Shown here one piece after another: positions 2,742 to 21,300 of a DNA stretch of 64,000 nucleotides; the first letter of the stretch is position 1, and every line of letters begins with the position of its first letter. This DNA is from an uncultured Planctomycetia bacterium (lineage in GTDB: Bacteria > Omnitrophota > Gorgyraeia > 2-01-FULL-45-10). The translations under genes and the position numbers were made by a program. The stretch lies in NCBI GenBank assembly GCA_964450115.1, contig CAYVCD010000001.1, positions 8,410 through 72,409 of the forward strand, read 5' to 3'. Below the pieces are notes generated by a model. That model was not told where the DNA came from. It saw nothing but the letters and a program-made list of their open reading frames with translations, and searched no databases.

Positions 2742-3515
2742 ATGCTAAAATATAAGATAATATCTATCTTCTTTGCGTCTTCCCTATGCGTCGTGTTGTT
2801 GGCGTATGCGGATACCGTATACTTAAAAAATGGCGGCAGCGTTTCCGGCGTTATAGAAAAAGAAGGCGATAATACGGTAGAGGTCAATACGGGTTTTGGC
2901 ACAGTCACTTTCAAGAAAGCCCAGATAAAGAATATCGAAAGGTCGAGCGCTGAAGAATCTCAGGAGATGGCCCAGGAGTGGGAAGAAGAGAGAGAGGAAT
3001 TGAAGTCCAAGGAGAAGGAGTTCGAAGAGGCGCGCGATAGTAGATTTAAGGGAGCCTACGAGAACTGGGTGGAGGAAGCGAAGGTGAAGAGAACCGAGGA
3101 AGGGCGCGTCACGAAGCAGATCGATATAAAGCATGAGCCCGGCGGCAAAGGCATAATAGTCGAGGTCTTGTTGAACAACAGCGTAAAGGTGAACCTGGTA
3201 TTGGATACTGGCGCGTCGATCATAGTCCTTTCGCGCAAAGCGGGCGAAAAGCTTGGTCTAGACCTTTCCGACACAAAGAAAGATGTTATGGAGATGCGTC
3301 TTGCCGATGGCAGCAAGGCTAAGGCCAGGGCGATGATCCTCGATAGCGTAAAGATAAAGGATGTCGAGGTAAAGGGCGTGATGGCGGCCATCCTGCTTGA
3401 CGAAGTTCCCACGATCGGTGTTACAGAAGGCCTTTTAGGGATGTCATTCTTAAATAAGTTCAACCTAAAGACGGACCTTAAGAATATGTCGATGAGCCTG
3501 GAAAGAATAGAATAA
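2742..3515 (+). CDS. secreted retropepsin-like (clan AA) aspartic protease
   Basis: Signal-peptide-like N-terminus (MLKYKIISIFFASSLCVVLLAYA). C-terminal domain carries a DTGAS active-site motif (VLDTGASIIVLS). ATG 2742 is chosen over TTG 2712 because 2712–2741 is the REP hairpin. Confidence 0.7.
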   Translation: MLKYKIISIFFASSLCVVLLAYADTVYLKNGGSVSGVIEKEGDNTVEVNTGFGTVTFKKAQIKNIERSSAEESQEMAQEWEEEREELKSKEKEFEEARDSRFKGAYENWVEEAKVKRTEEGRVTKQIDIKHEPGGKGIIVEVLLNNSVKVNLVLDTGASIIVLSRKAGEKLGLDLSDTKKDVMEMRLADGSKAKARAMILDSVKIKDVEVKGVMAAILLDEVPTIGVTEGLLGMSFLNKFNLKTDLKNMSMSLERIE

Positions 3516-4846: not shown

Positions 4847-4881
4847 TCACATCCTTAGAATTAATTTTTCACCTCAACCAT

Positions 4882-5079
4882 TAGGCGGGAACTTACGGTG
4901 CCCGCCTTCCGCTTGACGCAAATTGCATTAGGCATGCAATTTGCTATGTAAAAATTCTGACAAAAATTCAGCCCTAAGACTTATTCCAGCATCATTGGTC
5001 GTCTGAATTTTTTCTGTACCGCCATAAGGTGTCAGAATTTTTGACATTCGCTCCAGGCGGATCACCGTAAGTTCCGCCT
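4882..5079. repeat. ~200-bp nested-palindrome element (outer IR GGCGGGAACTTACGGTG / CACCGTAAGTTCCGCC)
   Basis: Outer 16–17-bp inverted repeats at 4882–4899 and 5063–5079. An inner perfect 11-bp-stem hairpin GCAAATTGCAT-taggc-ATGCAATTTGC. A 13-bp IR AAAAATTCTGACA / TGTCAGAATTTTT. A 7-bp IR AATTCAG / CTGAATT. Confidence 0.5.
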
Positions 5080-5107
5080 TCAGTATGAATGAAAAATTTC
5101 TAGTGCT

Positions 5108-5442
5108 GGCAGGCGAGACCTTGCGGGGTGGTTGCCGGAGCGGCGTTACAAATTTCACTTCGCTCTACGCGAGAAATCCCCGAGCTCCGTGGAATTTCCT
5201 ACTTGTAAGCGAGGGAAATTTTGATACCTTATGGCAATATAGAAAGGCCGGACAAACTGCTCAAGCTATGTATGGTTGGCAGGTTGGACGGCCATCAAAA
5301 TTTGTCCGAGCAAATTTACTTGCCTAATGTAAATTTCACTTCGCTCTCCATGAGGAATCCCCGAGCTTCGTGGAATTTCCTACTCGTAAGCGAGGGAAAT
5401 TTGCGTCCGCGCAGGCAATTACCCCGCAAGGTCACCGCCTGC
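5108..5442. repeat. 335-bp TIR-flanked structured repeat element, copy A (MITE-like or structured ncRNA)
   Basis: Near-identical copy at 9245–9578. Terminal inverted repeats GCAGGCGAGACCTTGCGGGGT … ACCCCGCAAGGTCACCGCCTGC. Contains two tandem ~72-bp imperfect-hairpin units (AAATTTCACTTCGCTC…GGAATTTCC…GCGAGGGAAATTT) separated by a ~110-bp foldable spacer. Confidence 0.7.
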
Positions 5443-5555
5443 TGGCTAATGTAAATTCAAATCAACTTAGGAAATTTCGAAGAGCTTGGTCTTTGAGGTT
5501 TCGCCGCTCTTTTTATTGGCTAAATCAATTATTTTGAACTATAATTGAAACCAAT

Positions 5556-7433
5556 ATGATATATGACCGTTTTCAGCAGGAGGCGATCGAGCACATAAAT
5601 AACGGTTATTCTGTTATCGTCTCCGCTCCCACCGGCGCCGGCAAGACGGCCATCGCCGAACATGTCATCAGTAAATGCCTGGATGAGAAGATAGGCGTGA
5701 TATACACGGCGCCGTTAAAAGCGCTCTCGAACCAGAAGTTCCGGGACTTCCAGGTGAACTTCAAGGACGACATAGGCATCCTTACCGGCGACGTCTCCCT
5801 TAACGCCAGCGCGCCCGTTCTTATAATGACCACCGAGATATTCCGCAATAAGATCCTAGATGACCCGGAGAGCCTCGCGCAGTATCAATGGATCATATTC
5901 GACGAGATACACTATATAGATAACCCCGAGCGCGGGACGGTCTGGGAAGAGTCCCTGATATTCCTGCCCAAGCACATGAAGATACTCGGCCTTTCAGCGA
6001 CGATACCTAATATAAAAGAGTTCGCCTCCTGGATAGAGTCCATCCATAAGAAAGAGGTCAAGGTCGTCATTGAAGAGACCAGACCCGTGCCGCTACACTT
6101 CTTCTACCAGTGCCATAACCAGGTGGTCGATAAGATAGAGCTCTTGAGGAAGATGCGCATGAGAAAGCCGAACATCCTCAGGACCATCATACACTACATA
6201 AGGCAGAAGAACGGCCTGCCCTGTATATACTTCGTATTCGGCAGACGGCGCGCCGAAGAACTTGCATTTGAACTCTTCAGTGAAAACTTCCTTACTAAGG
6301 AAGAGGAGATCAAGATAAGGGATATGTACGACTCTCTTTGCGAGCACTACGATCTCTTACACGAAAAGACGGCAAACTCCATGAGACAGCTGATAACCAG
6401 GGGCATAGCCTATCATCACGCCGGAATGCTCCCCACCCTCAAAGAGGTGGTGGAGAGGTTATTTACGAGCAGGCTCTTGAAGGTCATCTTCACCACGGAA
6501 ACATTCGCTCTCGGCATAAATATGCCGAGCCGCTCCGTAGTATTCGATGACTTGAGAAAGTTCTACGGCAGCTTCATCAGAAATCTGAAGACGCGCGATT
6601 TTTACCAGATGGCCGGACGGGCCGGAAGGCGCGGCATAGATACCGAGGGTTTTGTATACTGCCGTATAAATCCGAGACGGATCGAGTTTCCGGAAGTGCG
6701 TAGAATTATTTACGGAAAACCGGAAGAGGTAAAGAGCCAGTTCAATACATCATACGCCACTATCCTGAATCTTTATGAAGAGCATAAAGAGGACCTGTAC
6801 AAAATATATCCTTTCTCGCTGCATTATTATCAGAGTAAAATTCACCATCAGCGCGAAGCGCTGCGACTTATGGAGTCGAAGCTGAAGCTATTGAAAGAGC
6901 TCGGCCACATAGAGAACGGCATCCTCACGCCGAAGGGGATGTTCGCTAAAGCAGTTTATGGTTACGAGCTTTTGCTGGGAGAGTTCTTCCAGGAGAATAT
7001 TTTTGAACAGCTCGATGAGCTGGGCATAGGCATGCTGGCAGCCGGCGTAGTCTTTGAACCGAGGAAGAATCAGAGCGGAGTGGGGGTACCCAAAGAAGGC
7101 GTCCAGTTGGAAAAGATGTGTCGCGACATCCACGAGAATATAAGGCGTCAAGAGATAAAGTATAAGATCTATCCATTCTCCAAGGCACCCCATTTTCATA
7201 TGGCGAAAGCTATAAATATGTGGATGCGCGGTGAGAAGTTCGCTCAAGTCCTGCGTTTTACCGATACGGATGAGGGGGAGGTCGTGCGATATTTCCGCAT
7301 GTCTATACAGATACTGCGCGAAATGGCGGACTCCGAAGCCTCATCATATCTATTGAAGGACAGGATAAAAAATACCATACGCCTGATAAACCGCGATGTT
7401 GTAGATGCGGAGAAACAGCTTCGCGAGGGATAG
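5556..7433 (+). CDS. superfamily 2 DEAD/DEAH-box helicase (Ski2/HelY-like)
   Basis: Walker A APTGAGKT, DEIH box (FDEIHYI), SAT motif, helicase C motifs (HHAGMLP, QMAGRAGRRG). Confidence 0.8.
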   Translation: MIYDRFQQEAIEHINNGYSVIVSAPTGAGKTAIAEHVISKCLDEKIGVIYTAPLKALSNQKFRDFQVNFKDDIGILTGDVSLNASAPVLIMTTEIFRNKILDDPESLAQYQWIIFDEIHYIDNPERGTVWEESLIFLPKHMKILGLSATIPNIKEFASWIESIHKKEVKVVIEETRPVPLHFFYQCHNQVVDKIELLRKMRMRKPNILRTIIHYIRQKNGLPCIYFVFGRRRAEELAFELFSENFLTKEEEIKIRDMYDSLCEHYDLLHEKTANSMRQLITRGIAYHHAGMLPTLKEVVERLFTSRLLKVIFTTETFALGINMPSRSVVFDDLRKFYGSFIRNLKTRDFYQMAGRAGRRGIDTEGFVYCRINPRRIEFPEVRRIIYGKPEEVKSQFNTSYATILNLYEEHKEDLYKIYPFSLHYYQSKIHHQREALRLMESKLKLLKELGHIENGILTPKGMFAKAVYGYELLLGEFFQENIFEQLDELGIGMLAAGVVFEPRKNQSGVGVPKEGVQLEKMCRDIHENIRRQEIKYKIYPFSKAPHFHMAKAINMWMRGEKFAQVLRFTDTDEGEVVRYFRMSIQILREMADSEASSYLLKDRIKNTIRLINRDVVDAEKQLREG

Positions 7434-7445
7434 GATTATTATATA

Positions 7446-7474
7446 TTGAAGTTTTGTATTTTTTGGAGTAGAAT
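7446..7474 (+). promoter_or_regulatory. putative sigma70-type promoter (TTGAAG –17– TAGAAT) upstream of the OmpA/LysM gene
   Basis: Hexamers at 7446–7451 and 7469–7474, in the AT-rich gap before ATG 7514. Confidence 0.3.
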
Positions 7475-7513
7475 ATACCCGTTAATTAAAAACCGCAAAT
7501 TAGGAGAATCACC

Positions 7514-8455
7514 ATGAAAAGAGTCGTATCCCTCATATTAATGTCCCTCTTCGTAATCGTTTCGGTCGGCTATAGCTACGCTGCGGAGCTTGAAGGAAAA
7601 CATAAGGCCCAAATGGACGAGATGCAGAAGAAGTTCCATTGGTGGCCGACGGACGCCAAACCCAATCCCGTGAAAGATGAGCGCGGCGGATACTGGTGGT
7701 GGCCTAAAGATAAAGGCACGACAAGCGGACTATGGGGCAATAGAGGATATGTTTACGTATACAAGATAATTTATGACTACAAAGAGGGCCTGCCGGAGCC
7801 TAAGAAAGACGAGCTCAGGGCGTCGCTCCTGGTAAAGAAGATACATAAGAACGTAAAGGTATATTTTGATTTCGATAAGTCAGAGATCCGCGATGATGCC
7901 ATTTCCGTGCTTGAGCAAGGCGTGGCGCTGCTGAATAAGAATCCCGAAACAAACATATTGATTACAGGGAATTGTGATCAGCGCGGGAGCGAAAAATATA
8001 ATGAGAAACTGGGCTTACGGCGCGGAGAGAGCGTAAAGAAGTTCATGGTGGATAAGGGCATACCCGAAGATCGTATAAAGATCGTAAGCCGCGGCAAGCT
8101 CGATGCCATCGCATATGTTAAAGATCTTTTAGGGATGGCCAAGGACAGGAATGCGCAGTTTATGGTGGCCGAGGTAGAAGAGATCAATATCCCATATGCC
8201 GGCGATATACCTGAGGGCGCTACAGCAGTTGAGGAAGGCAAATATATAGAGGAGAAAGAGGTGATAGTCGAGTCCGAGCCTAAAGTCTCAACCAGGGAAT
8301 ATATCATCAAGCAGAACGACTCCCTCTGGAAGATAGCCCAGAGCCAGTTGGGCAGCGGACATCGCTGGAAATATCTGTACGAACTGAACAAAGACAGGAT
8401 AAAGAACCCGAAGAAACTAAAAGCAGGTACGACGATAATAATACCTGTAGAATAG
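7514..8455 (+). CDS. OmpA-family peptidoglycan-associated protein with C-terminal LysM domain
   Basis: Signal peptide. OmpA_C-like region (…ILITGNCDQRGSEKYNEKLGLRRGESV…). LysM (YIIKQNDSLWKIAQSQLGSGHRWKYLYELN…). Confidence 0.8.
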   Translation: MKRVVSLILMSLFVIVSVGYSYAAELEGKHKAQMDEMQKKFHWWPTDAKPNPVKDERGGYWWWPKDKGTTSGLWGNRGYVYVYKIIYDYKEGLPEPKKDELRASLLVKKIHKNVKVYFDFDKSEIRDDAISVLEQGVALLNKNPETNILITGNCDQRGSEKYNEKLGLRRGESVKKFMVDKGIPEDRIKIVSRGKLDAIAYVKDLLGMAKDRNAQFMVAEVEEINIPYAGDIPEGATAVEEGKYIEEKEVIVESEPKVSTREYIIKQNDSLWKIAQSQLGSGHRWKYLYELNKDRIKNPKKLKAGTTIIIPVE

Positions 8456-8460
8456 GTCAT

Positions 8461-8949
8461 ATGATAGAGGTAGATTCGGCAGCCATAAAGCTCTCGAGCC
8501 TTTTAAAAGAGAATCTTATAGAACTAGGGCTTGAGGGCAAAGATAAAACAGAGATAATAGACGAGTTAGTAGATATAATAATCAAGTCGGGCAAGTCAAA
8601 GAACAAGAAGGCTCTCGCGGCCGCTATAATGGGGCGCGAAAATCTGGGGTCTACGGCCATAGGCAACGGCGTCGCCGTGCCTCACGCCAAGATCGACGGT
8701 ATAAGACAGACGGTGCTGGCCTTCGGCAGGTCGGCCGTCGGGGTGGACTTCAACTCCCTGGACGGCGAAAAGACGCACCTCTTCTTCATGCTTATATCGC
8801 CGAAAGAGGATATAGGCTCCCATCTAAAGATACTCGCAAAGATATCGCACCTCATCAAAGACCGCTTCATGGTAGGCCTCTTCAAAAAAGCTCATAGCAA
8901 AAAAGAAGTCCTCTCAATGATCACCAATCTGGAAAAGTCCTCAAAGTAA
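8461..8949 (+). CDS. PTS EIIA type-2 domain protein (PtsN/EIIA-Ntr-like)
   Basis: …LGSTAIGNGVAVPHAKIDG… with the conserved His. 162 aa is typical of stand-alone EIIA-Ntr. Confidence 0.8.
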   Translation: MIEVDSAAIKLSSLLKENLIELGLEGKDKTEIIDELVDIIIKSGKSKNKKALAAAIMGRENLGSTAIGNGVAVPHAKIDGIRQTVLAFGRSAVGVDFNSLDGEKTHLFFMLISPKEDIGSHLKILAKISHLIKDRFMVGLFKKAHSKKEVLSMITNLEKSSK

Positions 8950-8996
8950 ACAGTTTTTAAGCTCAGGCAGGCATCGACCTCGCGGGGCCAACTCTC

Positions 8997-9231
8997 AAAA
9001 CCTAAGCCTTGTTATGTTCCGCACAAGGCCACCTAATAAGGTGGCAGGAAAAATGTTTCCCCTCACAGTAAAGCTTGAGGTCGGTCTTTTGCTCAGTCGA
9101 AAAACGGGGGCCTGCGGAACTCCCCCGCCAGAGGCGGGGTCAGACATCCTCGGCCCTTTTTAACCGTTTTTCTCCATCACAAAAGACCTAACATTTTTAT
9201 TGTGCGTCACATAACGAAGGCTTAGGTTTTA
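8997..9231. repeat. ~235-bp palindromic element (outer IR AAACCTAAGCCTTGTTATGT / ACATAACGAAGGCTTAGGTTTT) with internal hairpins
   Basis: Inverted repeats at 8997–9016 and 9210–9231. Internal hairpins CCTTGT…ACAAGG, GCCACC-TAATAA-GGTGGC, CGGGGG…CCCCCG and CCCCGCC-AGA-GGCGGGG. Same position as element 4882–5079 relative to the 335-bp repeat, but a different sequence. Confidence 0.45.
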
Positions 9232-9244
9232 CAGCACATAACCG

Positions 9245-9578
9245 GGCAGGCGAGACCTTGCGGGGTAGCAGCCGAAGCGGCGTTACAAATTTCACTTCGC
9301 TCTACGTGAGAAATCCCTGAGCTCCGTGGAATTTCCTACTTGTAAGCGAGGGAAATTTTGATACCTTATGGCAATATAGAAAGGCCGGACAAACTGCTCA
9401 AGCTATGTATGGTTGGCAGGTTGGACGGCCATCAAAATTTGTCCGAGCAAATTTACTTGCCTAATGTAAATTTCACTTCGCTCTCCATGAGGAATCCCCG
9501 AGCTTCGTGGAATTTCCTACTTGCAAGCGAGGGAAATTTGCGTCCGCTGAGGCGCTACCCCGCAAGGTCCACGCCTGC
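9245..9578. repeat. 335-bp TIR-flanked structured repeat element, copy B
   Basis: Near-identical to 5108–5442 (same TIRs, same two hairpin units). The ORF-track peptides from 5221 and 9358 are almost identical for this reason. Confidence 0.7.
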
Positions 9579-9646
9579 CTGTAGTAGAACGCCAGGTATT
9601 TCAGTGAAAGATTTGACTTGGATGAGAGTGTATGCTATACTTATTA

Positions 9647-9670
9647 TACTTTAAGTAATTACTATAACTA
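9647..9670 (+). promoter_or_regulatory. conserved operator-like motif TACTTTAAGTAATTACTATAACTA (10-bp perfect palindrome AGTAATTACT) upstream of merR-like gene 1
   Basis: 21 of the 24 nt are identical to 11644–11667, upstream of the paralogous regulator. Confidence 0.45.
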
Positions 9671-9677
9671 CTACTAT

Positions 9678-9899
9678 ATGGCCAAGATCTCCGCACAGGA
9701 CGTCGTAAAGAAGTTCGGCATCAAGTACCATACCCTCAATTTCTATACCACCATAGGCTTACTGCCCCTTTCGGGAAAGAACGGCAACCAGAGAATGTTC
9801 GATGAGGACGAGATCAGGTCGAGGCTGGCCCGGATCACACGCCTTTCGCAGGAAGGCTACCCCTTGAACCTGATACGCAAGAAACTGGTGGGCGTATGA
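9678..9899 (+). CDS. short MerR-family HTH protein (BldC-like, no effector domain), paralogue 1
   Basis: 73 aa. MAKISAQDVVKKFGIKYHTLNFYTTIGLLP… matches the MerR N-terminal HTH. ATGA overlap with the downstream secretin gene. Confidence 0.6.
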   Translation: MAKISAQDVVKKFGIKYHTLNFYTTIGLLPLSGKNGNQRMFDEDEIRSRLARITRLSQEGYPLNLIRKKLVGV

Positions 9900-11632
9900 C
9901 ATTCAAACGCTCTTATCCTATTGTAGTCTTCGCTATTCTTACTATGGCGATGGCCTTAACCTGTGCAGAGGGCGAGGAGGCGACAGCTCAAAATCCGACA
10001 CAGCCTGTCCAGGAAGCGACTACCGCGGTAAGGGGTGAGAACGCCATGATATCCCTGGACTTGAAGGGGATAGACATAATAGAGCTCTTAAGGATACTAT
10101 CTCTCAAGACCGGCCTGACCATAGTCCCGACCAAAGGCGTTTCCGGCAGGGTCAACGTGTATCTCAATAATCTCACTTTCGAAGACGCCTTCAACATAAT
10201 ACTCTTAAGCCAGGACTTAGCCGCAGACAAGAAAAGCGGCGTCATAAACGTCATGACATCCGCCGAATATGAGAAGATATACGGCAGGAGGTATGCCGAC
10301 AAGAGGAAAGTCAAGATCCTGACGCTCGCTTACGCCAAGCCCTCCGTAGTATTCAATGCTCTGGGACAGCTGAAGTCCGATATAGGAAAGATCATAGTAG
10401 ATGAAGCGACCGGAACAGTATTTTTGATCGATATCCCAGAAAAACTGAAACTGATGGAAGATACCGTAAAAGACCTTGATCAGCCTCTCGATACCGCGGT
10501 ATTTGAGTTGAAATACGCTAAACCTGCGGACATAAAGGCCCATCTCTCTACGGCCATCACAGCCGGACTTGGGGAAGTATTTGTCGATGAGAAGGCCGGG
10601 AAGGTAGTAGTATCGGATCTTCCGTACAAGATAGATAAGATACGTAAGATGATAAAGTCCTTCGATTCGGCGCCTCTACAGGTATTTATAGAGGCTGAGA
10701 TATTGGAAGTCCTGCTTGATGATAAATTTGAAAGAGGCATAGACTGGGATGCGATGATATCCGGGAAGGCATGGCAGAAGTGGCTAAGGGTAGGCACCAT
10801 AGATCTAAAAGGCTTTTTCCCATCCACTCTGACTATCCCTTCTCAAAAGATTACGGTCGGCACTCTGAAGGAAACAAATTACACCTCCATTATAAGATTC
10901 CTCCAGACATACGGCGATACGAGGACTCTCTCCCGTCCGCGTCTTGCGGTAGTGGATAACCAGGAGGCCAAGATATTGGTAGGGACGAGGCAGGCTTATG
11001 TGAGCCAGACCCTGAGCCAAGGGGGGACGAGCACTACCGTAACATCGGAAAGCATCCAGTTCGTGGACGTAGGCGTTAAATTAAACGTAGCCCCATCCAT
11101 ATCGAGTGACGGATTCATAGTGATGAAGATAAGGCCCGAGGTGAGCGCGGTCGAGACCACGATCACGACATATCTCGGAAGCACCATACCTATAATAAAG
11201 ACCTCTGAAGCCGAAAGCGTCGTTAAGGTCAAGGACGGCACCATGATAATTATAGCGGGTATGATCAAAGAGGAGAACCCGGATGATATCACAGGCTGGC
11301 CATACCTGTCTAAGTTAAAAGGCGCGGGATTTTTATTTGGCAAGAGAACCGTTCAAAAAAGGCGTACCGAGCTCGTGATATTCATTACACCTCATATTAT
11401 TTCGGGCGAAGCGCCTGTGGATGATCACACGATCGAAGACCTGATGCCGGCAGAGATCGTACCGTGGGACGCGAAGAAAGACATAATAGACGATAAGATA
11501 AGGGAAGATATAAATTTTAAGAAAGAACCCAAGGCCAAAAACTATGCTCCAAAAGGTCAGGCGGCTAATTCAGGTCCGGAGAGCGGCCGAGGAGCTGTTA
11601 TGGGGAAGTCGAAAGGGGTTAAGAGTTATTGA
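9896..11632 (+). CDS. secretin (GspD/PilQ family), paralogue 1
   Basis: Signal peptide and N-terminal secretin N domains. Conserved secretin C-domain (…SRPRLAVVDNQEAKILVG…IQFVDVGVKLNVAPSISSDGFIVMKIRPEVS…GWPYLSKL…TELVIFITPHII). Confidence 0.85.
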   Translation: MTFKRSYPIVVFAILTMAMALTCAEGEEATAQNPTQPVQEATTAVRGENAMISLDLKGIDIIELLRILSLKTGLTIVPTKGVSGRVNVYLNNLTFEDAFNIILLSQDLAADKKSGVINVMTSAEYEKIYGRRYADKRKVKILTLAYAKPSVVFNALGQLKSDIGKIIVDEATGTVFLIDIPEKLKLMEDTVKDLDQPLDTAVFELKYAKPADIKAHLSTAITAGLGEVFVDEKAGKVVVSDLPYKIDKIRKMIKSFDSAPLQVFIEAEILEVLLDDKFERGIDWDAMISGKAWQKWLRVGTIDLKGFFPSTLTIPSQKITVGTLKETNYTSIIRFLQTYGDTRTLSRPRLAVVDNQEAKILVGTRQAYVSQTLSQGGTSTTVTSESIQFVDVGVKLNVAPSISSDGFIVMKIRPEVSAVETTITTYLGSTIPIIKTSEAESVVKVKDGTMIIIAGMIKEENPDDITGWPYLSKLKGAGFLFGKRTVQKRRTELVIFITPHIISGEAPVDDHTIEDLMPAEIVPWDAKKDIIDDKIREDINFKKEPKAKNYAPKGQAANSGPESGRGAVMGKSKGVKSY

Positions 11633-11643
11633 TATAATTGCTG

Positions 11644-11667
11644 TACTTTAAGTAATTACTTTAACTA
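11644..11667 (+). promoter_or_regulatory. conserved operator-like motif TACTTTAAGTAATTACTTTAACTA upstream of merR-like gene 2
   Basis: Paralogous to 9647–9670. Followed by a hairpin CCCCGCA…TGCGGGG overlapping the RBS region. Confidence 0.45.
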
Positions 11668-11717
11668 CATAACCCCGCACCTTCTTAATGGAGATGCGGG
11701 GAGGAGAAGGTGCGGTC

Positions 11718-11939
11718 TTGAAGAAGATCTCGGCTCAGGACATAGTGAAGAAGTTCGGCATCAAGTACCACACCCTTAACTATTACACTACGATGGGGCT
11801 ATTGCCCCTTTCGGGTAAGAGCGGCAATAGGCGTATGTATGACGAGAACGAGATACGGACGAGGCTTGACGATATCATGCGCCTTTCGCAGGAAGGTTAC
11901 CCTTTGAACCTTATACGCAAGAAGCTGGTGGGGATATGA
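11718..11939 (+). CDS. short MerR-family HTH protein (BldC-like), paralogue 2
   Basis: TTG start with an AGGAGAAGG RBS gives a 73-aa protein colinear with paralogue 1 (MKKISAQDIVKKFGIKYHTLNYYTTMGLLP…). The longer ATG 11688 start would add an unmatched extension. Confidence 0.55.
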   Translation: MKKISAQDIVKKFGIKYHTLNYYTTMGLLPLSGKSGNRRMYDENEIRTRLDDIMRLSQEGYPLNLIRKKLVGI

Positions 11940-12772
11940 GCTATTTTAAGATATTAGGATTGGACAGGGAGCCTTTTTCCACGAGCCCCGACCCCGCCTT
12001 CTTCTATGAATCGCAGGAGCACCACGCCGCTCTCATGAGGCTCATGATAGAGATACGTTTGAAGAGGGGCTTAAGCCTTATACTCGGAGACGTGGGGACT
12101 GGGAAGACGACGCTTTCGCGCAAACTCTTCCAGATGCTGAAGGAACGCACCGACATAATATTCCATATGGTGATGGACCCTACCTATGATAGCGAGAAGT
12201 TGCTGCTCGAATCTCTTATTCGTACATTCGGCATAGATATGGGCCCGGGGCCCGATCGTTCGATATTGGATTATAAGGAAGAGATAAAGAAGTATCTGTA
12301 CAGAACGGCGGTTGAGGAGAATAAGATAGTGGTCCTCCTGGTGGACGAGGCGCAGAAGCTGAATGCGATGTCGCTGGAGATCTTAAGGGTAATGCTCAAT
12401 TATGAAACCAATGAATTTAAGCTCCTGCAGGTGGTCTTGCTGGGCCAGCTTGAGCTTTTACCGCGCCTAAGAGAGATAAATAATCTATGGGACAGAATAA
12501 GCTTGAAGTACATGTTGAACCCGCTGGATGAAGAAGAGACTAGACAGATGATAGATTTCAGATTAAAGGCGGCGGGCTATAATTCACGTGTGGAATTTTT
12601 CACCGATGAGGCGATAAAAGAGATATATCAATACACCCAGGGGTATCCGAGGCGCATATCTATGCTATGCCATAACGCGCTTAAGGCTCTAGTTATGGTG
12701 AATAAGCCTATAGTGGATGTGAATATAATCCGCGACATAATGAGTAAGGATATATGGCAAAAGACGACATGA
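11936..12772 (+). CDS. ExeA/GspA-like AAA ATPase (secretin-assembly ATPase)
   Basis: N-terminal LGLDREPF motif typical of ExeA. Walker A GDVGTGKT. Walker B VLLVDEAQ. ATGA overlap with the merR-like gene. Confidence 0.7.
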   Translation: MSYFKILGLDREPFSTSPDPAFFYESQEHHAALMRLMIEIRLKRGLSLILGDVGTGKTTLSRKLFQMLKERTDIIFHMVMDPTYDSEKLLLESLIRTFGIDMGPGPDRSILDYKEEIKKYLYRTAVEENKIVVLLVDEAQKLNAMSLEILRVMLNYETNEFKLLQVVLLGQLELLPRLREINNLWDRISLKYMLNPLDEEETRQMIDFRLKAAGYNSRVEFFTDEAIKEIYQYTQGYPRRISMLCHNALKALVMVNKPIVDVNIIRDIMSKDIWQKTT

Positions 12773-13380
12773 CGCCTGAAGAGAGGCTTTTGAAGATAAT
12801 CGAGAATCCGAACACCCCGAAGCGCCAGGAGTCTTTGGCCGCCAAAGTGAGATCGTTCGATCCCGGATCTATAAAGGAATGGTTCTCCGGCATTCGCATG
12901 GATAAGGACCTTCTTAAAAAGATAAACCTAAAGGCGATCAATAAGATAATAGCCGTAATATGCGCCCTCATTACCTTAATATGGATATTCGATTTTGGCA
13001 GGGGTGGCATAGCGCTGGCAAAGCGTTTTAAGAAGATCTCCTCCGGCGAATCTCTCGTTTCGTCGGATGAAGGTAAGTGGCCTAAAATAGACGTTACTAT
13101 AACAGATGCCACAATACAGGCAAGAAAACGGAATATATTTACATTTCTGCCTACAAAAGAAGAGGCAGCTTCTGCGGTAAGCGTGGGGCCGACATTGGGC
13201 AATTTTAAACTTGTCGGTATACTGTGGAGCGATAACCCGCAGGCGATGATAGAAAATTCGCAAGAGCAGAGAACATACTTCGTTTCAAACGGAGATAAGA
13301 TAGGCGAGCTGACTGTAAAAAAGATCCTAAGGGACAAGGTAATGCTTGGTAAAGATGATCAGGAGTGGGAGTTAAGATGA
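12754..13380 (+). CDS. single-pass membrane protein with C-terminal GspB/GspC/PilP-like HR domain
   Basis: One TM (IIAVICALITLIWIF). The C-terminus (FKLVGILWSDNPQAMIENSQEQRTYFVSNGDKIGELTVKKILRDKVML) matches the secretin-interacting HR/PilP pattern. Overlaps both neighbouring genes. Confidence 0.45.
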   Translation: MAKDDMTPEERLLKIIENPNTPKRQESLAAKVRSFDPGSIKEWFSGIRMDKDLLKKINLKAINKIIAVICALITLIWIFDFGRGGIALAKRFKKISSGESLVSSDEGKWPKIDVTITDATIQARKRNIFTFLPTKEEAASAVSVGPTLGNFKLVGILWSDNPQAMIENSQEQRTYFVSNGDKIGELTVKKILRDKVMLGKDDQEWELR

Positions 13381-15104
13381 GGCGAATATTATCGATATTG
13401 ATAATCGTCGTTTTCGTCTCCTCGTTCGTATATTGCGAGGAACCTACGCAAGAGTCCGAGTTGAAGGTTAGCGAAAAAGACTCCATGATATCCCTCGACC
13501 TAAAGGGTATAGATATAGTAGAACTCCTAAGAATACTCTCTCTCAAGACCGGCCTTACCATAGTCCCCACAAAGGGCGTATCTGGCAGGGTCAACATATA
13601 TCTCAACAATCTCTCATTTGAGGACGCCTTTAATATCATTCTCCTGAGCCAGGACCTTGCCGCGGACAGGAAGGGCAGTGTGATAAATGTCATGACATCC
13701 CCAGAATACGAAAAACTATACGGCAGGAAATATACCGACAAAAGAAGGGTCAGGCGCTTAAAGTTAAATTATGCTAAACCCTCTGTAGTATTCAACGCGC
13801 TCGGCCAGCTGAAATCCGATGTCGGCAAGATAATCGTGGATGAGGCGTCCGGGACGATAATACTTATCGATATCCCGGAGAAATTAAAGCTGCTGGAAGA
13901 AGCCGTGAAGAAGCTCGACCAGCCTCTCGATACGGAAACTTTCGAACTAAAATACGCCAAGCCCGCGGATATTAAGGCTCAGCTTTCATCGGCTATTACC
14001 CCGGGGCTCGGCGAGGTCTTTGTAGATGAAAAAACGGGCAAGGTCATAGTCTCGGATATGCCCGACAAGATAGCTAAGATCAGGCGCATGGTGAGAGCTT
14101 TCGACTCCGCGCCTTTACAGGTATTTATAGAGGCCGAGATAGTGGAGCTATTGCTTAATGATGAATTCCAACGCGGTATAGATTGGACCAAGGTCTTTGG
14201 AGAAGAGCAATGGATGAAGTGGTCCAAGCTTTTAGGCCTTTCTTTGGTAGGGGCATTTCCCGCGGTTCCTACTCTTGCGGCAGCTTTCCAGAAAGTCACT
14301 GTTGGAACGCTCGCTGCCAACAAATATACAGCCACATTAAAATTCCTCCAGACATACGGTAAGACGAGGACCCTCTCCCGTCCGCGTCTGGCGGTAGTGG
14401 ATAACCAGGAGGCTAAGATATTGGTAGGTAAGCGCGAAGCCTATGTGAGCCAGACTTTGAGCCAGGCGGGAACGGGTACCACCGTGACATCAGAGAGCAT
14501 ACAGTTCGTGGATGTCGGAGTGAAGCTTAATGTGGTGCCGTCCATCTCAAGCGACGGCTTCATAGTGATGAAGATAAAGCCCGAAGTCAGCTCGGTCGAG
14601 ACCACGATTGTTACATCCCTGGGGAGCCGTATACCTATAATCAAGACTTCGGAAGCCGAAAGTGTCGTTAAGGTCAAAGATGGCACTATGATAATGATAG
14701 CGGGCCTGATGAAAGAGGAGAATATCGACAGCATAACAGGCTGGCCATACTTGTCCAAAATGAAAGTGCTTGACGCTGCATTTGGGAACAGGACGACTAC
14801 AAAAAAGAATACAGAACTTATAATATTTATTACTCCTCGTATCATAACGGGCGAAGCGCCCGTAGAGGATAATGAGCTCGAAACGCTGATGCCGGCAAGC
14901 ATCATACCGAAGGATCTCAAGGAAGATATAATAGACGATAAGATAAAGAAAGATATAAATCTGAAGAAAAGAGAGAAAATGGGGACAGCGCCCCTTTTAG
15001 ACAAAAGCTATTTGAGTGCTAAAAAGGGCGCTGTCCCCATTTCTGAAAAGTCCGGCGTTAGCTTCGCCGACAAGATGAAAGGAATTAAAAAATATGAAAA
15101 ATAA
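13377..15104 (+). CDS. secretin (GspD/PilQ family), paralogue 2
   Basis: About 70% identical in translation to 9896–11632. ATG 13377 with an AGGAGT RBS gives a signal peptide MRRILSILIIVVFVSS. Confidence 0.85.
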   Translation: MRRILSILIIVVFVSSFVYCEEPTQESELKVSEKDSMISLDLKGIDIVELLRILSLKTGLTIVPTKGVSGRVNIYLNNLSFEDAFNIILLSQDLAADRKGSVINVMTSPEYEKLYGRKYTDKRRVRRLKLNYAKPSVVFNALGQLKSDVGKIIVDEASGTIILIDIPEKLKLLEEAVKKLDQPLDTETFELKYAKPADIKAQLSSAITPGLGEVFVDEKTGKVIVSDMPDKIAKIRRMVRAFDSAPLQVFIEAEIVELLLNDEFQRGIDWTKVFGEEQWMKWSKLLGLSLVGAFPAVPTLAAAFQKVTVGTLAANKYTATLKFLQTYGKTRTLSRPRLAVVDNQEAKILVGKREAYVSQTLSQAGTGTTVTSESIQFVDVGVKLNVVPSISSDGFIVMKIKPEVSSVETTIVTSLGSRIPIIKTSEAESVVKVKDGTMIMIAGLMKEENIDSITGWPYLSKMKVLDAAFGNRTTTKKNTELIIFITPRIITGEAPVEDNELETLMPASIIPKDLKEDIIDDKIKKDINLKKREKMGTAPLLDKSYLSAKKGAVPISEKSGVSFADKMKGIKKYEK

Positions 15105-17127: not shown

Positions 17128-17314
17128 GAAATAAATAGAAGTCGAAAATGGCAAACCTGGGGTGACCCAGGGACGCCCGCCTGCCCGCATGTTTTGAGGC
17201 AGTCGGGACTGTCCGCCAGCAGGCGGGCAGGCAAAGTCGTGCATCCTGATGTAAGGAAAGGCAGACTGCCGATGTGGGAGTAGAACCCAGGTCAGTTTGC
17301 CTGGGATTTTTTTT
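17128..17314 (+). ncRNA. candidate ~185-nt structured small RNA (promoter-to-terminator unit), family unknown; could instead be the hairpin-rich 5' region of the RAYT-like gene
   Basis: Hairpins CCTGGG-GTGA-CCCAGG, a 10-bp stem GCCCGCCTGC…GCAGGCGGGC, and a possible 5'/3' closing stem GGCAAACCTGGG / CCCAGGTCAGTTTGCC. Ends in an intrinsic terminator at 17286–17314. No ORF. Confidence 0.3.
17286..17314 (+). terminator. rho-independent terminator (CCCAGG-tcagtttg-CCTGGG + T8)
   Basis: 6-bp GC stem, 8-nt loop, then ATTTTTTTT. Confidence 0.55.
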
Positions 17315-17373: not shown

Positions 17374-18372
17374 ATGTCTAGAGTGCCACGCATATACATA
17401 GAAAATGCGGTATGTTACATCACCTCCAGAGGTGACCATGAAGGAGCTATATTTAAGGAGGATGGTGACTACAAGGCTTATATGGAGTTATTGAAAAAGA
17501 CAAAAGATCAGTTTAAATTTAAGCTCTTTGCGTTTTGTCTGCTTCCGAATCATGCGCATCTGCTCATTGAGCCTGATGAAGAGAGCACAATATCGCAGAC
17601 GATGCATGGGTTAAGCTCAAATTACACGAAGTATTTTAATGGCAAATATAAGAGTAGCGGACATCTTTTTCAGGAAAGATACAAGATGGCTCTCGTAGAA
17701 AAAGATCCCAATATCGCTAATATGACCGCATATATTAACCTGAATCCAAAAGCCGTGGGAGTCACCTCAGAACCAAAGAGTTATCAGTATTCAAGTTATC
17801 CGTCTTACCTATATTATGGCGGGAGTAAGGGAAGTTTAATTGGCATTCCGGTAATATCGATCGAGAAAGAAGTGCGGGAGGTGTCGACGCACCTTAACGG
17901 AAGAAGATACGAAGATTATGTTAATAGTATATCATCGGAAGTCCTGCAGAATATCGGTAAGGAATTATCCAAAAAACCTATCATAGGATCAGATGAATTC
18001 GTTACAAGAGTAAAGTCAAAGATAGAGAGCGAAAAGCTAAAAGCTGAAACAGAAAAAGCTGGGGCCGGCGCGGTGGCCAGGAACAGTAAGAGATTTATCA
18101 TTGTCTCCGGAATCGTTATCGCTGTATTGGGACTATTGACTTTTTACCTATATTCAAGAACCATTTCTTTTAAGAGCACTCTTAAGAACAGGGAAGTAGA
18201 GCTCAGGCTGGGAGCGGTAAAGGCCAGGGGAGAGATAAAGAAAGATTTGAATGAAAGGTACCATGCTGACATGGTCTCTTATGAAGCGATGACAAAGAGA
18301 CTTGAGATAGAGAAGAAGAGGGCGGTGGAGTTGGAAAATAAATTGAAAGCTGAAGGCGCCCCAAAGATCTGA
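17374..18372 (+). CDS. RAYT/IS200-like Y1 (HUH) transposase domain fused to a C-terminal membrane-anchored coiled-coil region
   Basis: N-terminal ~140 aa match COG1943/RAYT: YHxxxRG (CYITSRGDHEGAIF), HUH motif LPNHAHLLIEP, catalytic Tyr context AYINLNPKAVGV. C-terminal TM (FIIVSGIVIAVLGLLTFYLY) plus a coiled-coil. GGAG RBS. Confidence 0.6.
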   Translation: MSRVPRIYIENAVCYITSRGDHEGAIFKEDGDYKAYMELLKKTKDQFKFKLFAFCLLPNHAHLLIEPDEESTISQTMHGLSSNYTKYFNGKYKSSGHLFQERYKMALVEKDPNIANMTAYINLNPKAVGVTSEPKSYQYSSYPSYLYYGGSKGSLIGIPVISIEKEVREVSTHLNGRRYEDYVNSISSEVLQNIGKELSKKPIIGSDEFVTRVKSKIESEKLKAETEKAGAGAVARNSKRFIIVSGIVIAVLGLLTFYLYSRTISFKSTLKNREVELRLGAVKARGEIKKDLNERYHADMVSYEAMTKRLEIEKKRAVELENKLKAEGAPKI

Positions 18373-18382
18373 ACGAAAGAAG

Positions 18383-21300
18383 ATGATCTATATGAAAAGC
18401 TTAAAAGGTAATGCTATAGTATCGGGGTGTTTTAAACTCGCGTTTATCGCATTCCTTATGACAGGCCTATGGACCAGCACTACCGCGAGCAACCCGGATT
18501 ACTACGAGTGGACGCAGAACAACTGGAACAGCAGCGCCAATCCGGCAGCGCAGGGTTCCCACCCCGGTAGCCAGACCGGCTGGACCAATTATTTTAGTAA
18601 AGACACGCCCCTTGGCATAGATACTTCCAGCGGCAAGGTGAAGCTAGCAACACTACCGTATACAATTACGAATACGACGCCAACCGATTTTAATTCCACT
18701 GAATTTCAGAATATAGAAAAAGTGAGCGATGGAAATGGAGCGTTGAGGCTCTTACCTACTATTAATGACCCCTTTGCAAATAATGAACTTCGTAAATGGA
18801 GAGCGCTTCCGAGCACTCCTTATTTTAATGCCAATACCAGATTTACGCGTATGGGTGATTATATATACTCCATATTCGTCTCCGGAGACGGCAAGCAGTT
18901 TGGCCGTATAAAAGTAAGCGACATATCGGATCCTGCCATTCTTCCAAAATGGCAATTTTTGACTTCTCTGCCCGTTCCATTAGGCGCCGGCGCGGCGATA
19001 ACCAACGATGGCCAGTATATATTCGTCCTGCGCGGCGGTGGTTCCAACGCGGCTTATTTTTATCTGCCTCCGGAAGGAACTAACCCCGGAACTAATCCAT
19101 TCACCACGGCTGACAATCCAATAACTTTACCTGTGGCAGGAAGCGAGGATCCCGTTCTTGCATGGCCTAAATTCTCTAGTTTGTCTGAAGGTGCCCAGAA
19201 AGGATCGTCGGTGATTCATGTTGGTACGATAGCCGATCGTTTCGCAAAAGTGGCGGATAGAGGACAGTTGTATGCTGTGTCAGGTGGCAATAGAACGGGT
19301 TTTTTTTACTACGACACATTTAACAAGGAATGGAGAAGGTTCACTAATCCGTCAAGAGCGGCTGTGAATGTTGGAGCCACGCTTATCCATAGAGGCGGCG
19401 ATTCTGTTTATCTGGTATTTGGAGACGGCTATAATGGCCGTATAGATAGATTTAGCAGAAGTTCTGGGACATGGTCTAATGCCTCCAGTAATACGTTTTT
19501 TCCCAAAGATCCGAATTTAATTTCTTTTCCGACTCTATGGGAAGGCTCTGTCTGCTCGTATCCCGGCTCAGGAGATTACGTATATGCGGCATTCTGTTAT
19601 TATACCTATATGCAGCCCTATAGATCGGGCGCCAATCACACGCTCCGGGGATTTTTTAGGTTCGGGCCGCTATCCGACCCAAATCCTACCTGGCAAAGAC
19701 TTGATGATGCGCCTGCCTGGATAGAGACTACTGCTTCGATCATCTATGACCCCGGTGCAGGAACAGGCGCTGAAGGAAATAAGTTGCATCTCTTTTCCGG
19801 TAGGAATTATACCCGGCCCTGGGTATACAAAACAGATAATCCGGACCCCTCTCAAAACCATTGGGAAACAATGTCTATGCCCTTAACTTATACAACCAAC
19901 AGCTCGATGGTCTACGTAAAAGCGGATACTTATACGGGAAATAAGGATTATATGTATATGGTCGTCAGAAACACATGGTTTCTCCGCTACGATGTTGCAG
20001 CGAATAAGTGGGATCTACTGGCATATCTACCAGAGACTGCCGGAGATCATCCCGGTAATCGCCTTACCTACTTGAATGGATATATTTATTACCTGGCGGG
20101 AAATAACAGTGCTGATCCGCTAGATGGATATAAGAGCGGATTTTACAGATATAGGGTATCTCAGACGTTGAATGGAAGCGACTCATGGGATCCAAAAACC
20201 GTCCTTCCGCAATTCCCAAGAGTGGATTTAAATACGAGCGATGCCATATTTAATAATGTAAATGCAGGCTCGGGCATTATAGGCATATCGCAGGGCGGTA
20301 GGAATTTTATATACGGCATCAGAAGTTCATCAAGCAGCTATTTTTATGCGATGGAAATTGGTGCCGACAATGCTCCCGTAGGAGGCTGGATTACCATGCC
20401 CAGCACAAGGGATAAATATAACAATTTAACCACTTTTAATACAACAAATTTGGTATACCCGGGTTATCCGGAAGACGGCGGTCAGCATACCTACATATAT
20501 GCCATCACGTACTTCAATACCGTAAGTGTCAGAAGCGGTTATTGTATATATAAGTATGGACCTATCGAACACGACACTGATACGGATCCCTCTACCGCCG
20601 CGCAATGGACCGAACTTTCGGCTACCTATCCTCACGATGTTACCACCGGACATAACATGTCCATCGCGTATCCTGGCACAGGCCAATATCTATACACAAC
20701 TACCGGTACATCAGATACATCGCTTGGCAGGTATAACATGCCTACAGGTGAATGGACCAAGCTCGATACTGTAGTACCCGTTGCCTATGAATATTACAGC
20801 CATGCTGTCGGAGGCAATAACAGCGTATACTTAACGACATATTATTCACAAAATAGTTTTTACCGTTATGATGTGACTTCGGGAAGGTGGGATGATCTGC
20901 CGATGGATCAGGGCGGTTTCTATTTCGAGGCCGGCAATGCGGTCAAGGACTCAAATAACAATGTATATTTTGTGGGGGGTAGGTCAGGTGATAATATATC
21001 CTCACATCTCTGGATATACAGTACTTCGCTAAAGAAGTGGGTTGGGCTTATGCGGGCGCCATTTCATTTGTCCAGAGGGACTAAAGCCGAATATTTGAGT
21101 GGTAAGGACAACTCTATAAATTCAATCTATGTAACAGAGGGTAGGCAGTCGAATCGGTTCTGCAAGTATAATATCACAAATGACGCTTGGAGTTTTTGCA
21201 AGCCTATTAAAACGGCTGTTACTACCGGCAGCCAGATAACTACCGATGGTATAAGCAAGATATACTTTGTGGCCGGAGGTGATGCTATCGGTAAGACAGT

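Follow-up and report, generated by a model that had tools for sequence, protein, structure and literature searches.

A lineage-restricted family of structured ~205-nt intergenic repeats with REP-like ends in Omnitrophota

Two nearly identical, hairpin-rich repeats with terminal inverted repeats lie between genes in a 64,000-nt stretch of DNA from an uncultured Omnitrophota bacterium (contig CAYVCD010000001.1, positions 8,410 to 72,409; hereafter the window), one after a NUDIX gene and the other after a PTS-IIA gene. They raise the question of whether such units are copies of a mobile element or genes for a structured non-coding RNA, and an initial annotation of the window had offered both possibilities, namely a non-autonomous element resembling a miniature inverted-repeat transposable element (MITE) and an RNA family of ~335 nt. 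Our analysis supported each of them in part. The multi-copy and non-coding nature of the repeats, their discrete ends, their presence/absence variation and their covariation were borne out, whereas a 335-nt unit, a target duplication, plain transposase-type ends and a promoter and terminator of their own were not, and the truth probably lies between the two proposals. The repeats belong to a family of ~205-nt repeats that is, as far as we can tell, previously undescribed and restricted to the intergenic DNA of one Omnitrophota lineage. There is, in our judgement, about an even chance that the family represents a non-autonomous element, similar to REPINs, ERIC and Correia elements, that is copied as a folded single strand. 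This reading and that of a functional RNA are compatible with each other.

Copy A (5106–5444) and copy B (9243–9581), both on the plus strand, share 97% identity over their first 300 nt and differ at 17 positions in 340 aligned columns; the similarity ends abruptly on both sides and the flanks are unrelated. Their terminal inverted repeats were recovered by independent detection (I2 and I9) and reach a few bases beyond the limits first drawn once G-U pairs are counted. The differences between the two copies fall within the closing stem and the hairpin insertions described below, and those affecting the stem are compensatory. The P2 helix of copy A (GGUUGCC/GGCAAUU), for instance, is replaced by AGCAGCC/GGCGCU in copy B with the pairing kept, and the outermost pairs of the two copies consist of other letters that are still paired via G-U. 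The foldability noted initially is evident in single-strand z values of −10 to −15 relative to shuffled sequence, and the plus strand is more stable than the minus strand by 10–14 kcal/mol. The small open reading frames (ORFs) listed inside the repeat found no support, as a six-frame translation gave no match among 5.8 billion proteins and the public gene calls on a twin contig skip the region; copies A and B are without coding capacity. In the following, related contigs or loci that were compared with the window are designated by L-numbers, L001 being this public twin contig.

The repeat unit proved to be a core of ~205 nt, not the 335 nt first proposed. When the pattern of the internal hairpins was scanned over one genome per species, two relatives were retrieved, and both are mosaics: L004 has the same ends as the window copies and a single hairpin (site 1 only), whereas in L003 the ends differ and the hairpin occupies the other site (site 2). 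A pattern derived from the shared 5′ segment retrieved 21 metagenome contigs, most of which contain a plain element of 191–208 nt, the size range of plain family members, with no internal hairpins. Applying the excision rule ‘AAATTT, hairpin, second AAATTT’ to the window copies leaves 207 nt, the length of these plain members. The internal hairpins of ~66–72 nt are present as described (four in the window, 0.3–0.5 expected), but they are not in tandem; each copy contains two separate insertions located 115 nt apart. Each insertion is 66 nt long (a 60-nt hairpin plus a duplicated AAATTT) and is sited at AAATTT. In copy A, insertion 1 (5156–5221, plus strand; nhmmer E 4e-24) resides inside the 5′ strand of helix P4, which is uninterrupted in L023, L011 and others, and insertion 2 (5337–5402, plus strand) resides at the P6/P3 junction after an AAATTT that has been duplicated, a site that alone is occupied in L015 and L003. 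The corresponding insertions in copy B were located by nhmmer at 9293–9358 and 9474–9539 (both plus strand). A hairpin variant was also found within P5 of L011 (3501–3574), and nested hairpin insertions with AAATTT duplication occupy three different core positions across the family. The 66-nt hairpin was found nowhere but within family members, both in 262 kb of related sequence and in the genome scan at species level, and it shows no strand preference, both strands folding equally well. The length of 335 nt is thus explained by the invasion of a ~205-nt core at AAATTT by the 60-nt hairpin, with duplication of AAATTT.

The fold of the core was determined from a MAFFT alignment of 16 cores (A2), from which a consensus structure was derived by RNAalifold and a covariance model (R1) was built. 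The consensus of A2 contains 58 pairs, 30 of which exhibit compensatory double changes. In the alignment of the 28 best matches fitted to R1, double changes were found in 45 of the 58 pairs and 96.8% of the cells were paired, compared with 31–51% when the partners were slid by 1–3 columns, and none of 500 shuffles reached the observed values; this alignment was fitted to R1 itself, and the independent MAFFT result agrees. A covariation analysis had been suggested in the initial annotation, and it revealed very strong structural covariation in all helices, including the long-range helices P1–P3. The closing stem of ~30 bp comprises P1, P2, a 3 × 3 internal loop (GAA/GGA) and P3 and is followed by a three-way junction, one arm of which consists of P4, a 20-nt one-sided loop (ACAUUAUGGCRAUAYAGAAA) and P5, the other being the P6 hairpin with the loop AUGCCYAAU. 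In copy A, all on the plus strand, the 5′ strands of P1–P3 are located at 5108–5146 and their 3′ strands at 5403–5442, the 5′ strand of P4 at 5149–5155 and 5222–5226, the conserved internal loop ACCUUAUGGCAAUAUAGAAA at 5227–5246, P5 at roughly 5247–5296, and the P6 hairpin at 5310–5336 with its loop UUGCCUAAU at 5320–5328. Copy A is accordingly a 207-nt core with two nested 66-nt insertions, and its insertion-free ortholog is found in L039 (127–335); copy B has the same architecture and an interior identical to that of copy A. P2 is the most variable part of the core, and P5 occurs in at least three unrelated versions, common to several members, whole modules having been exchanged between members. 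A pseudoknot between the internal loop (UUAUGGCA) and the P6 loop (UGCCUAA), with seven pairs and one bulge, can be drawn, but we do not claim it because its few variants (L014, L009 and L025) do not covary.

The two strands of the core are not equivalent. On the modelled strand, G-U cells outnumber A-C cells (32 vs 9, in 18 vs 9 pairs), and 23 of the 28 members fold more stably as the sense strand (mean 6.7 kcal/mol) with G+T near 0.50, although the members are related to one another and do not represent 28 independent trials. One particular strand is under selection to keep the core fold. Watson-Crick covariation by itself does not discriminate between RNA and DNA, and the strand tests fit an RNA and a specific single DNA strand equally well.

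Far from being only two copies that arose by a local segmental duplication including flanking sequence, the repeats are part of a family with 38 members on 27 contigs, all in Omnitrophota-type contexts and with unrelated flanks. The helicase flanking copy A has its nearest named homologues in Omnitrophota metagenome-assembled genomes (MAGs), and L003 is itself an Omnitrophota MAG. All 38 members are intergenic, three being present in the window and three in 12.5 kb of L039. The third window member is the element at 4882–5079, which had been regarded as unrelated to the 335-nt repeat. Because R1 matches its minus strand with 130.5 bits (E 3e-36), as opposed to 20.8 bits on the plus strand, it is an inverted and diverged family member (4878–5085, minus strand) arranged head-to-head with copy A, with about 20 nt between the two 5′ ends. 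Both of its ends are hairpins of the type AGGCGG-N13-CCGCCU (4883–4907 and 5055–5079), which resemble repetitive extragenic palindromic (REP) sequences (two pattern matches, 0.03 expected), and its P5 variant is also found in L027 (1900–2111). Head-to-head pairs recur in L005, L006, L010, L011, L022, L023 and L039 with spacers of about 1–94 nt, and in L008 and L013 with an intervening gene; close pairs were found in no other arrangement. Contigs often break inside family members (L002, L005, L013, L018 and L023), as repeats cause such breaks. Some members lie within a few kilobases of rRNA genes, i.e. those on L008 (23S with a group I intron plus 5S at 1–840) and L011 (5′ end of 16S at 1–85), and the member on L004 (1–227) adjoins a cobalamin riboswitch.

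The site between the NUDIX and helicase genes illustrates the turnover of the family. The window contains the inverted member and copy A with its insertions, and a small DUF167 gene has been deleted. L039, whose helicase is 92% identical, carries a head-to-head pair without insertions together with the DUF167 gene, and L026 (93%) carries one plain core, a tandem array of 3′-end units and an element of another repeat family (family D, see below). The site is empty in L027 (92%), where the two stop codons are 2 nt apart, and in L038 (78%). As an aside, the 3′ end of the DUF167 (PF02594) gene has left a remnant in the window (5474–5508), and the gene is intact in L026, L027, L028 and L039. The L039 copy can be regarded as the ortholog of copy A because the unusual P2 sequence of copy A is common to both. 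Members were encountered exclusively in the helicase clade of at least 92% identity, and none was found near the helicase in relatives of ≤82% identity or on three contigs carrying the Y1 gene discussed below, in about 125 kb in total. Between the window and L001, there are no differences across 3.5 kb of genes, but copy B of L001 has 10 extra differences within 115 nt of the interior; since the interiors of the two window copies are identical, copy B appears to have been recently converted by copy A. Copies are thus gained and lost between close relatives and are homogenised by gene conversion.

This turnover bears on the idea of a cis-acting genomic signal, such as a processing or insulating hairpin or a nucleoid-protein or topological site, that is selected in place and is not mobile. 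Members lie strictly between genes, with 3′ ends that often come within 9–43 nt of a convergent stop codon or immediately precede the promoter of the next gene, and orthologous pairs are retained; the long near-perfect closing stem would also suit double-strand-specific RNases. However, close relatives have this site empty, nothing having replaced the element, both orientations occur, and members cluster with other repeat families and not with particular genes. The clade-restricted expansion is likewise unlike that of a fixed signal, and this explanation appears improbable.

Each end of the core is a palindrome of ~27–32 nt, CAGGCGG-ACCUUGCGGGGUA-CCGCCUG (N13 between the arms) and its inverse at the other end, and the two palindromes can either fold locally or pair with each other as P1 and P2. 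The end units also occur alone and in tandem, as in L026 (9583–9725), where a perfect 65-nt repeat is present in 2.2 copies (3′-end units, 100% match), and in L010. In the window, a solo 5′-REP-like fragment, GGCAGGCAUCGACCUCGCGGGGCC (8966–8990, plus strand), is located directly after the stop codon of the PTS-IIA gene and matches CCTTGCGGGGT with two mismatches. No fixed insertion motif was found 5′ of the core, the left flanks being heterogeneous.

Small size, absence of an ORF, multiple copies, filled and empty sites and terminal inverted repeats of at least 21 nt are also what would be expected of a MITE of the classical cut-and-paste kind, one that descends from a DDE-type insertion sequence and depends for its mobility on the recognition of these repeats by that sequence, and elements resembling this type are indeed nested in the family, i.e. 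the 60-nt hairpin with its 6-bp AAATTT duplication and a ~170-nt insertion in L003 with a 9–10-bp duplication. The 205-nt family itself behaves differently. Target-site duplications, which the initial annotation had proposed to look for, were not consistently found around the approximately 25 cores inspected, where only an occasional TG or TGTC was seen. Conservation is lowest in the terminal repeats, which covary instead of being fixed, and the conserved part is the interior. About 400 kb of related sequence contained no related insertion sequence. BLAST searches of plasmid and phage records gave no match to the element, and scans of viral contigs yielded no family member, five loop-pattern matches not belonging to the family. 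A DDE-dependent MITE therefore has little to recommend it. The nested element of L003 (~1240–1410), an observation in its own right, lies in the P6 loop of a family member, is flanked by a 9–10-nt direct duplication, (G)ATGCCCAAT, has its own inverted repeats (TGTCCAAATT/AATTTGGACA), and resembles a separate MITE-type insertion.

If the family is, as we favour, a non-autonomous element, a trans-acting enzyme would copy or move it in the form of a folded single strand. A transposase of the HUH/Y1 type, similar to REP-associated tyrosine transposases (RAYTs), would be the most plausible mobiliser, given the REP-like ends and the absence of a visible target duplication. Where neighbouring transcription runs through the element, its RNA would fold into a long double-stranded stem, which could affect the processing or stability of the mRNA.

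Only one RAYT candidate was examined, a Y1-domain ORF in the window (17374–18372, plus strand) encoding a 332-aa protein with an N-terminal Y1_Tnp domain and a C-terminal transmembrane segment and coiled coil. It matches Pfam Y1_Tnp with an E value of 1e-14, and its best NCBIfam match is ‘REP-associated tyrosine transposase’ (REP_Tyr_transpos). The synteny around it is kept in Omnitrophota relatives at 60–75% identity and includes a giant 4250-aa surface protein (18383–31135). The ORF product looks like a domesticated Y1 enzyme. It was considered and set aside as the cognate transposase on account of the conserved synteny, the lack of flanking family REPs and the relatives’ loci without a family copy, and a link between the two is speculative. 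Another Y1_Tnp protein (220 aa) is encoded in L026 (16474–17136, minus strand) and is flanked on both sides by ATTCCGATCC(C/G)GGATCGGAAT palindromes. This locus looks like a classical RAYT accompanied by its own REPs, although these are of another type than the REPs of the 205-nt family. The genes lying between distant divergent copies, which could have formed an autonomous element, are QueA and a peptidase, and a guide-RNA (omega-RNA-like) function was also discarded, as there is neither an adjacent nuclease gene nor a conserved flanking motif; no tnpA or tnpB gene was found near the 205-nt elements.

Upstream of the Y1 ORF, we also noted a conserved small-RNA-like gene (17150–17312, plus strand) with a promoter (TTGACT...TATACT) and a stem plus U-run terminator. 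The gene is kept in L030, L031 and L032, and Rfam contains no match to it. A 56-nt GC-rich palindromic insertion (17176–17231) is present within it in this strain alone, and the arms of this insertion have CCGCCTG/CAGGCGG in common with the REP-like ends of the 205-nt family.

Several observations weigh against the favoured reading of a non-autonomous element that is copied in folded, single-stranded form. Neither a target-site duplication nor a conserved target motif flanks the core in the approximately 25 members inspected, and about 400 kb of related loci yielded no autonomous partner that shares these ends. The Y1 ORF scores 62 bits, below the NCBIfam cut-off of 80, and resides in conserved synteny (TPR genes and the giant protein) with no flanking family REPs. 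Orthologous-site pairs persist across about 13% nucleotide divergence (L006/L010 and L011/L022), and the L039 ortholog of copy A has changed compensatorily in place, in P1 (CUUAGGGGG/CCCCCUAAG), P3 (GCGAAG/GUUCGC) and P6 (AAACUUAC/GUAAGUUU). Furthermore, in nine members that lie outside the selection by search patterns, conservation was higher at unpaired internal positions (0.88) than at paired positions (0.79), and both conserved loops (AUGCCUAAU and UUAUGGCG) were almost invariant. Loops that are better conserved than stems are typical of a functional RNA or of a single strand bound by protein. The spacer of the family also departs from that of REPINs, as discussed at the end.

The main rival reading is a multi-copy family of structured RNA genes that would have multiplied in the lineage and would produce a ~205-nt RNA with a three-way junction, the conserved loops of which bind protein or nucleic acid. 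The REP-like ends would then be the closing stem of this RNA and the 66-nt hairpins tolerated expansion segments. Besides the invariant loops of the unbiased nine-member subset and the compensatory changes in place, an RNA gene would account for the covariation in every helix, the excess of G-U over A-C cells and the greater stability of the sense strand without a G+T bias, and the head-to-head layout is the geometry of divergent transcription units. A −10-like box is present 2–7 nt before GGCAGG in about half of the left flanks (e.g. TATAAT in L027), which is suggestive but not significant. Yet neither a consensus promoter nor a terminator was consistently found at the element ends; the 5′ ends of head-to-head pairs are separated by only about 1–40 nt, too short a spacer for two divergent promoters, and no terminator follows the 3′ end. 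The lack of orientation bias relative to the neighbouring genes, the presence/absence variation among relatives with 92–93% helicase identity, the absence around the helicase and Y1 loci at ≤82%, the solo tandem arrays of end units and the swapping of whole P5 modules also speak against a set of RNA genes. In addition, no match was obtained in Rfam 15 at the gathering score (window and 20 loci), and permissive searches (E up to 10) returned chance matches only, namely those to snoR113, mir-4738 and PVT1. We regard an RNA gene family as a serious but less likely alternative.

The two views may also be combined. More speculatively, the 205-nt core could be a functional RNA or a protein-bound single strand that acquired REP-like ends and copies itself, i.e. 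a bacterial analogue of short interspersed elements (SINEs). If so, its three-way-junction core would be selected, its P5 exchangeable and its head-to-head pairing obligate, the AAATTT-targeting 60-nt hairpin would be a hyper-parasite, and the neighbouring repeat families C and D would be sister replicators in the same intergenic islands.

Family C is represented in the window by the element at 8997–9231, which is unrelated to the 205-nt family, in agreement with its initial description as different from the 335-nt repeat, but is a recurrent neighbour of it. It shows 86% mean column identity with elements in L012 and L018, with compensatory hairpin changes, and folds with a z value of about −11 on both strands, the minus strand being more stable. 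The family consists of ~235-nt multibranched repeats that precede 205-nt members in L012 (about 505–745), L018 (about 2770–3010) and L015 (about 900–1200), and occurs inverted in L024. The window element and its twin in L001 differ by a 41-nt hairpin indel, an internal position that is occupied in L015 by a larger insertion. Family D is a third structured family, located directly upstream of the 205-nt element in L007, L009 and L026 (9040–9390) and also found in L025 and L019, with a long closing stem (UUUUUCGGGUCCUGCUGCUGGCUUUGAC...GCCUUCAGCCAGCAUCACCCGAAAAAC) and variable interiors. Neither family has an Rfam match. The 41-nt indel and the 56-nt insertion described above, both hairpins that distinguish near-identical strains, and the 66-nt insertions with AAATTT duplication record with unusual clarity a process that inserts very small sequences, whether mobile or templated.

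Duplications of other kinds were noted elsewhere. The 9620–15000 region of the window contains duplicated gene pairs (a small MerR-family regulator and a secretin) with duplicated palindromic promoter regions, which constitute the repeat families D2–D6 with 74–80% identity. A sodium-dependent transporter gene in L007 and the RlmN gene in L024, both downstream of family members, possess a near-identical promoter/start region, TTGAAAA-N17-TATAAT-GAARGCCT-ATGGCGAAGAT, which may be a mobile promoter cassette or may reflect convergence on the consensus.

The non-coding DNA of the Omnitrophota, which are uncultured, is essentially uncharted; our search of the literature on their RNAs or repeats found no report of the family. 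The 205-nt repeats break the metagenome assemblies of this clade and should be masked or modelled in binning and in the calling of small ORFs. With a covariance model, covariation and strain-level turnover at hand, they provide a tractable case for asking whether repeats of the REP, ERIC and Correia types are selfish elements, host RNAs or both.

Of the known repeat systems, REPINs, ERIC and Correia-type elements come closest to the family, and PATEs can also be compared with it. PATEs are non-autonomous derivatives of IS200/IS605, some with guide-RNA scaffolds, and have end hairpins in direct orientation, and elements of the IS200/IS605 type insert beside a fixed motif of 4–5 nt. The 205-nt family shares with PATEs the structured ends, the absence of a target duplication, a probable single-strand intermediate and a strand-specific fold, but its end palindromes are inverted, its left flanks lack a fixed motif and no tnpA or tnpB is nearby. 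Correia elements (NEMIS) of Neisseria form long hairpins upon transcription, which RNase III can cleave, and possess 26-bp terminal repeats and a TA target duplication. BOX elements of Streptococcus pneumoniae are composed of exchangeable or repeated internal modules with no closing REP pair. Similar to these, the 205-nt family is small, non-coding and modular and would form a long hairpin if transcribed. It has neither a TA target duplication nor 26-bp terminal repeats, unlike Correia elements, and shows no homology to Correia or BOX elements. ERIC (IRU) sequences of enterobacteria are imperfect palindromes of ~127 bp in transcribed intergenic regions, and longer variants arise by insertions of ~70 bp at specific internal sites. 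The parallels here are an imperfect palindrome that is conserved across species, an intergenic location and insertions of ~66–70 nt at defined internal positions. There is no sequence similarity, and the 205-nt family, in another phylum, is longer and branched and has REP-like ends and head-to-head pairs.

REPINs are inverted REP doublets with a spacer that form hairpins in single-stranded DNA or mRNA, commonly show compensatory changes and occur in ordered clusters; two alternative folds, hairpin and clover, have been described, and in the classic GI REPIN, two conserved 16-mers are 71 bp apart (start to start) and the spacer is less conserved than the REPs (PMC3116915). In the 205-nt family, by contrast, the spacer is about 150 nt long, forms a three-way junction and is at least as conserved as the ends, and the RAYT-like gene is below its family cut-off and is not flanked by the REPs of the family. 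As these two features of REPINs and the target duplication of MITEs were not found, we place the family outside every named family. It nevertheless resembles REPINs in many respects: a unit bounded by two inverted REP-like palindromes that fold locally or jointly into a long hairpin, compensatory changes linking the two ends, an extragenic location, solo REP arrays, ordered clusters, insertion with no target duplication, the persistence of copies at orthologous sites and the presence of a Y1/RAYT-like gene in the genome.

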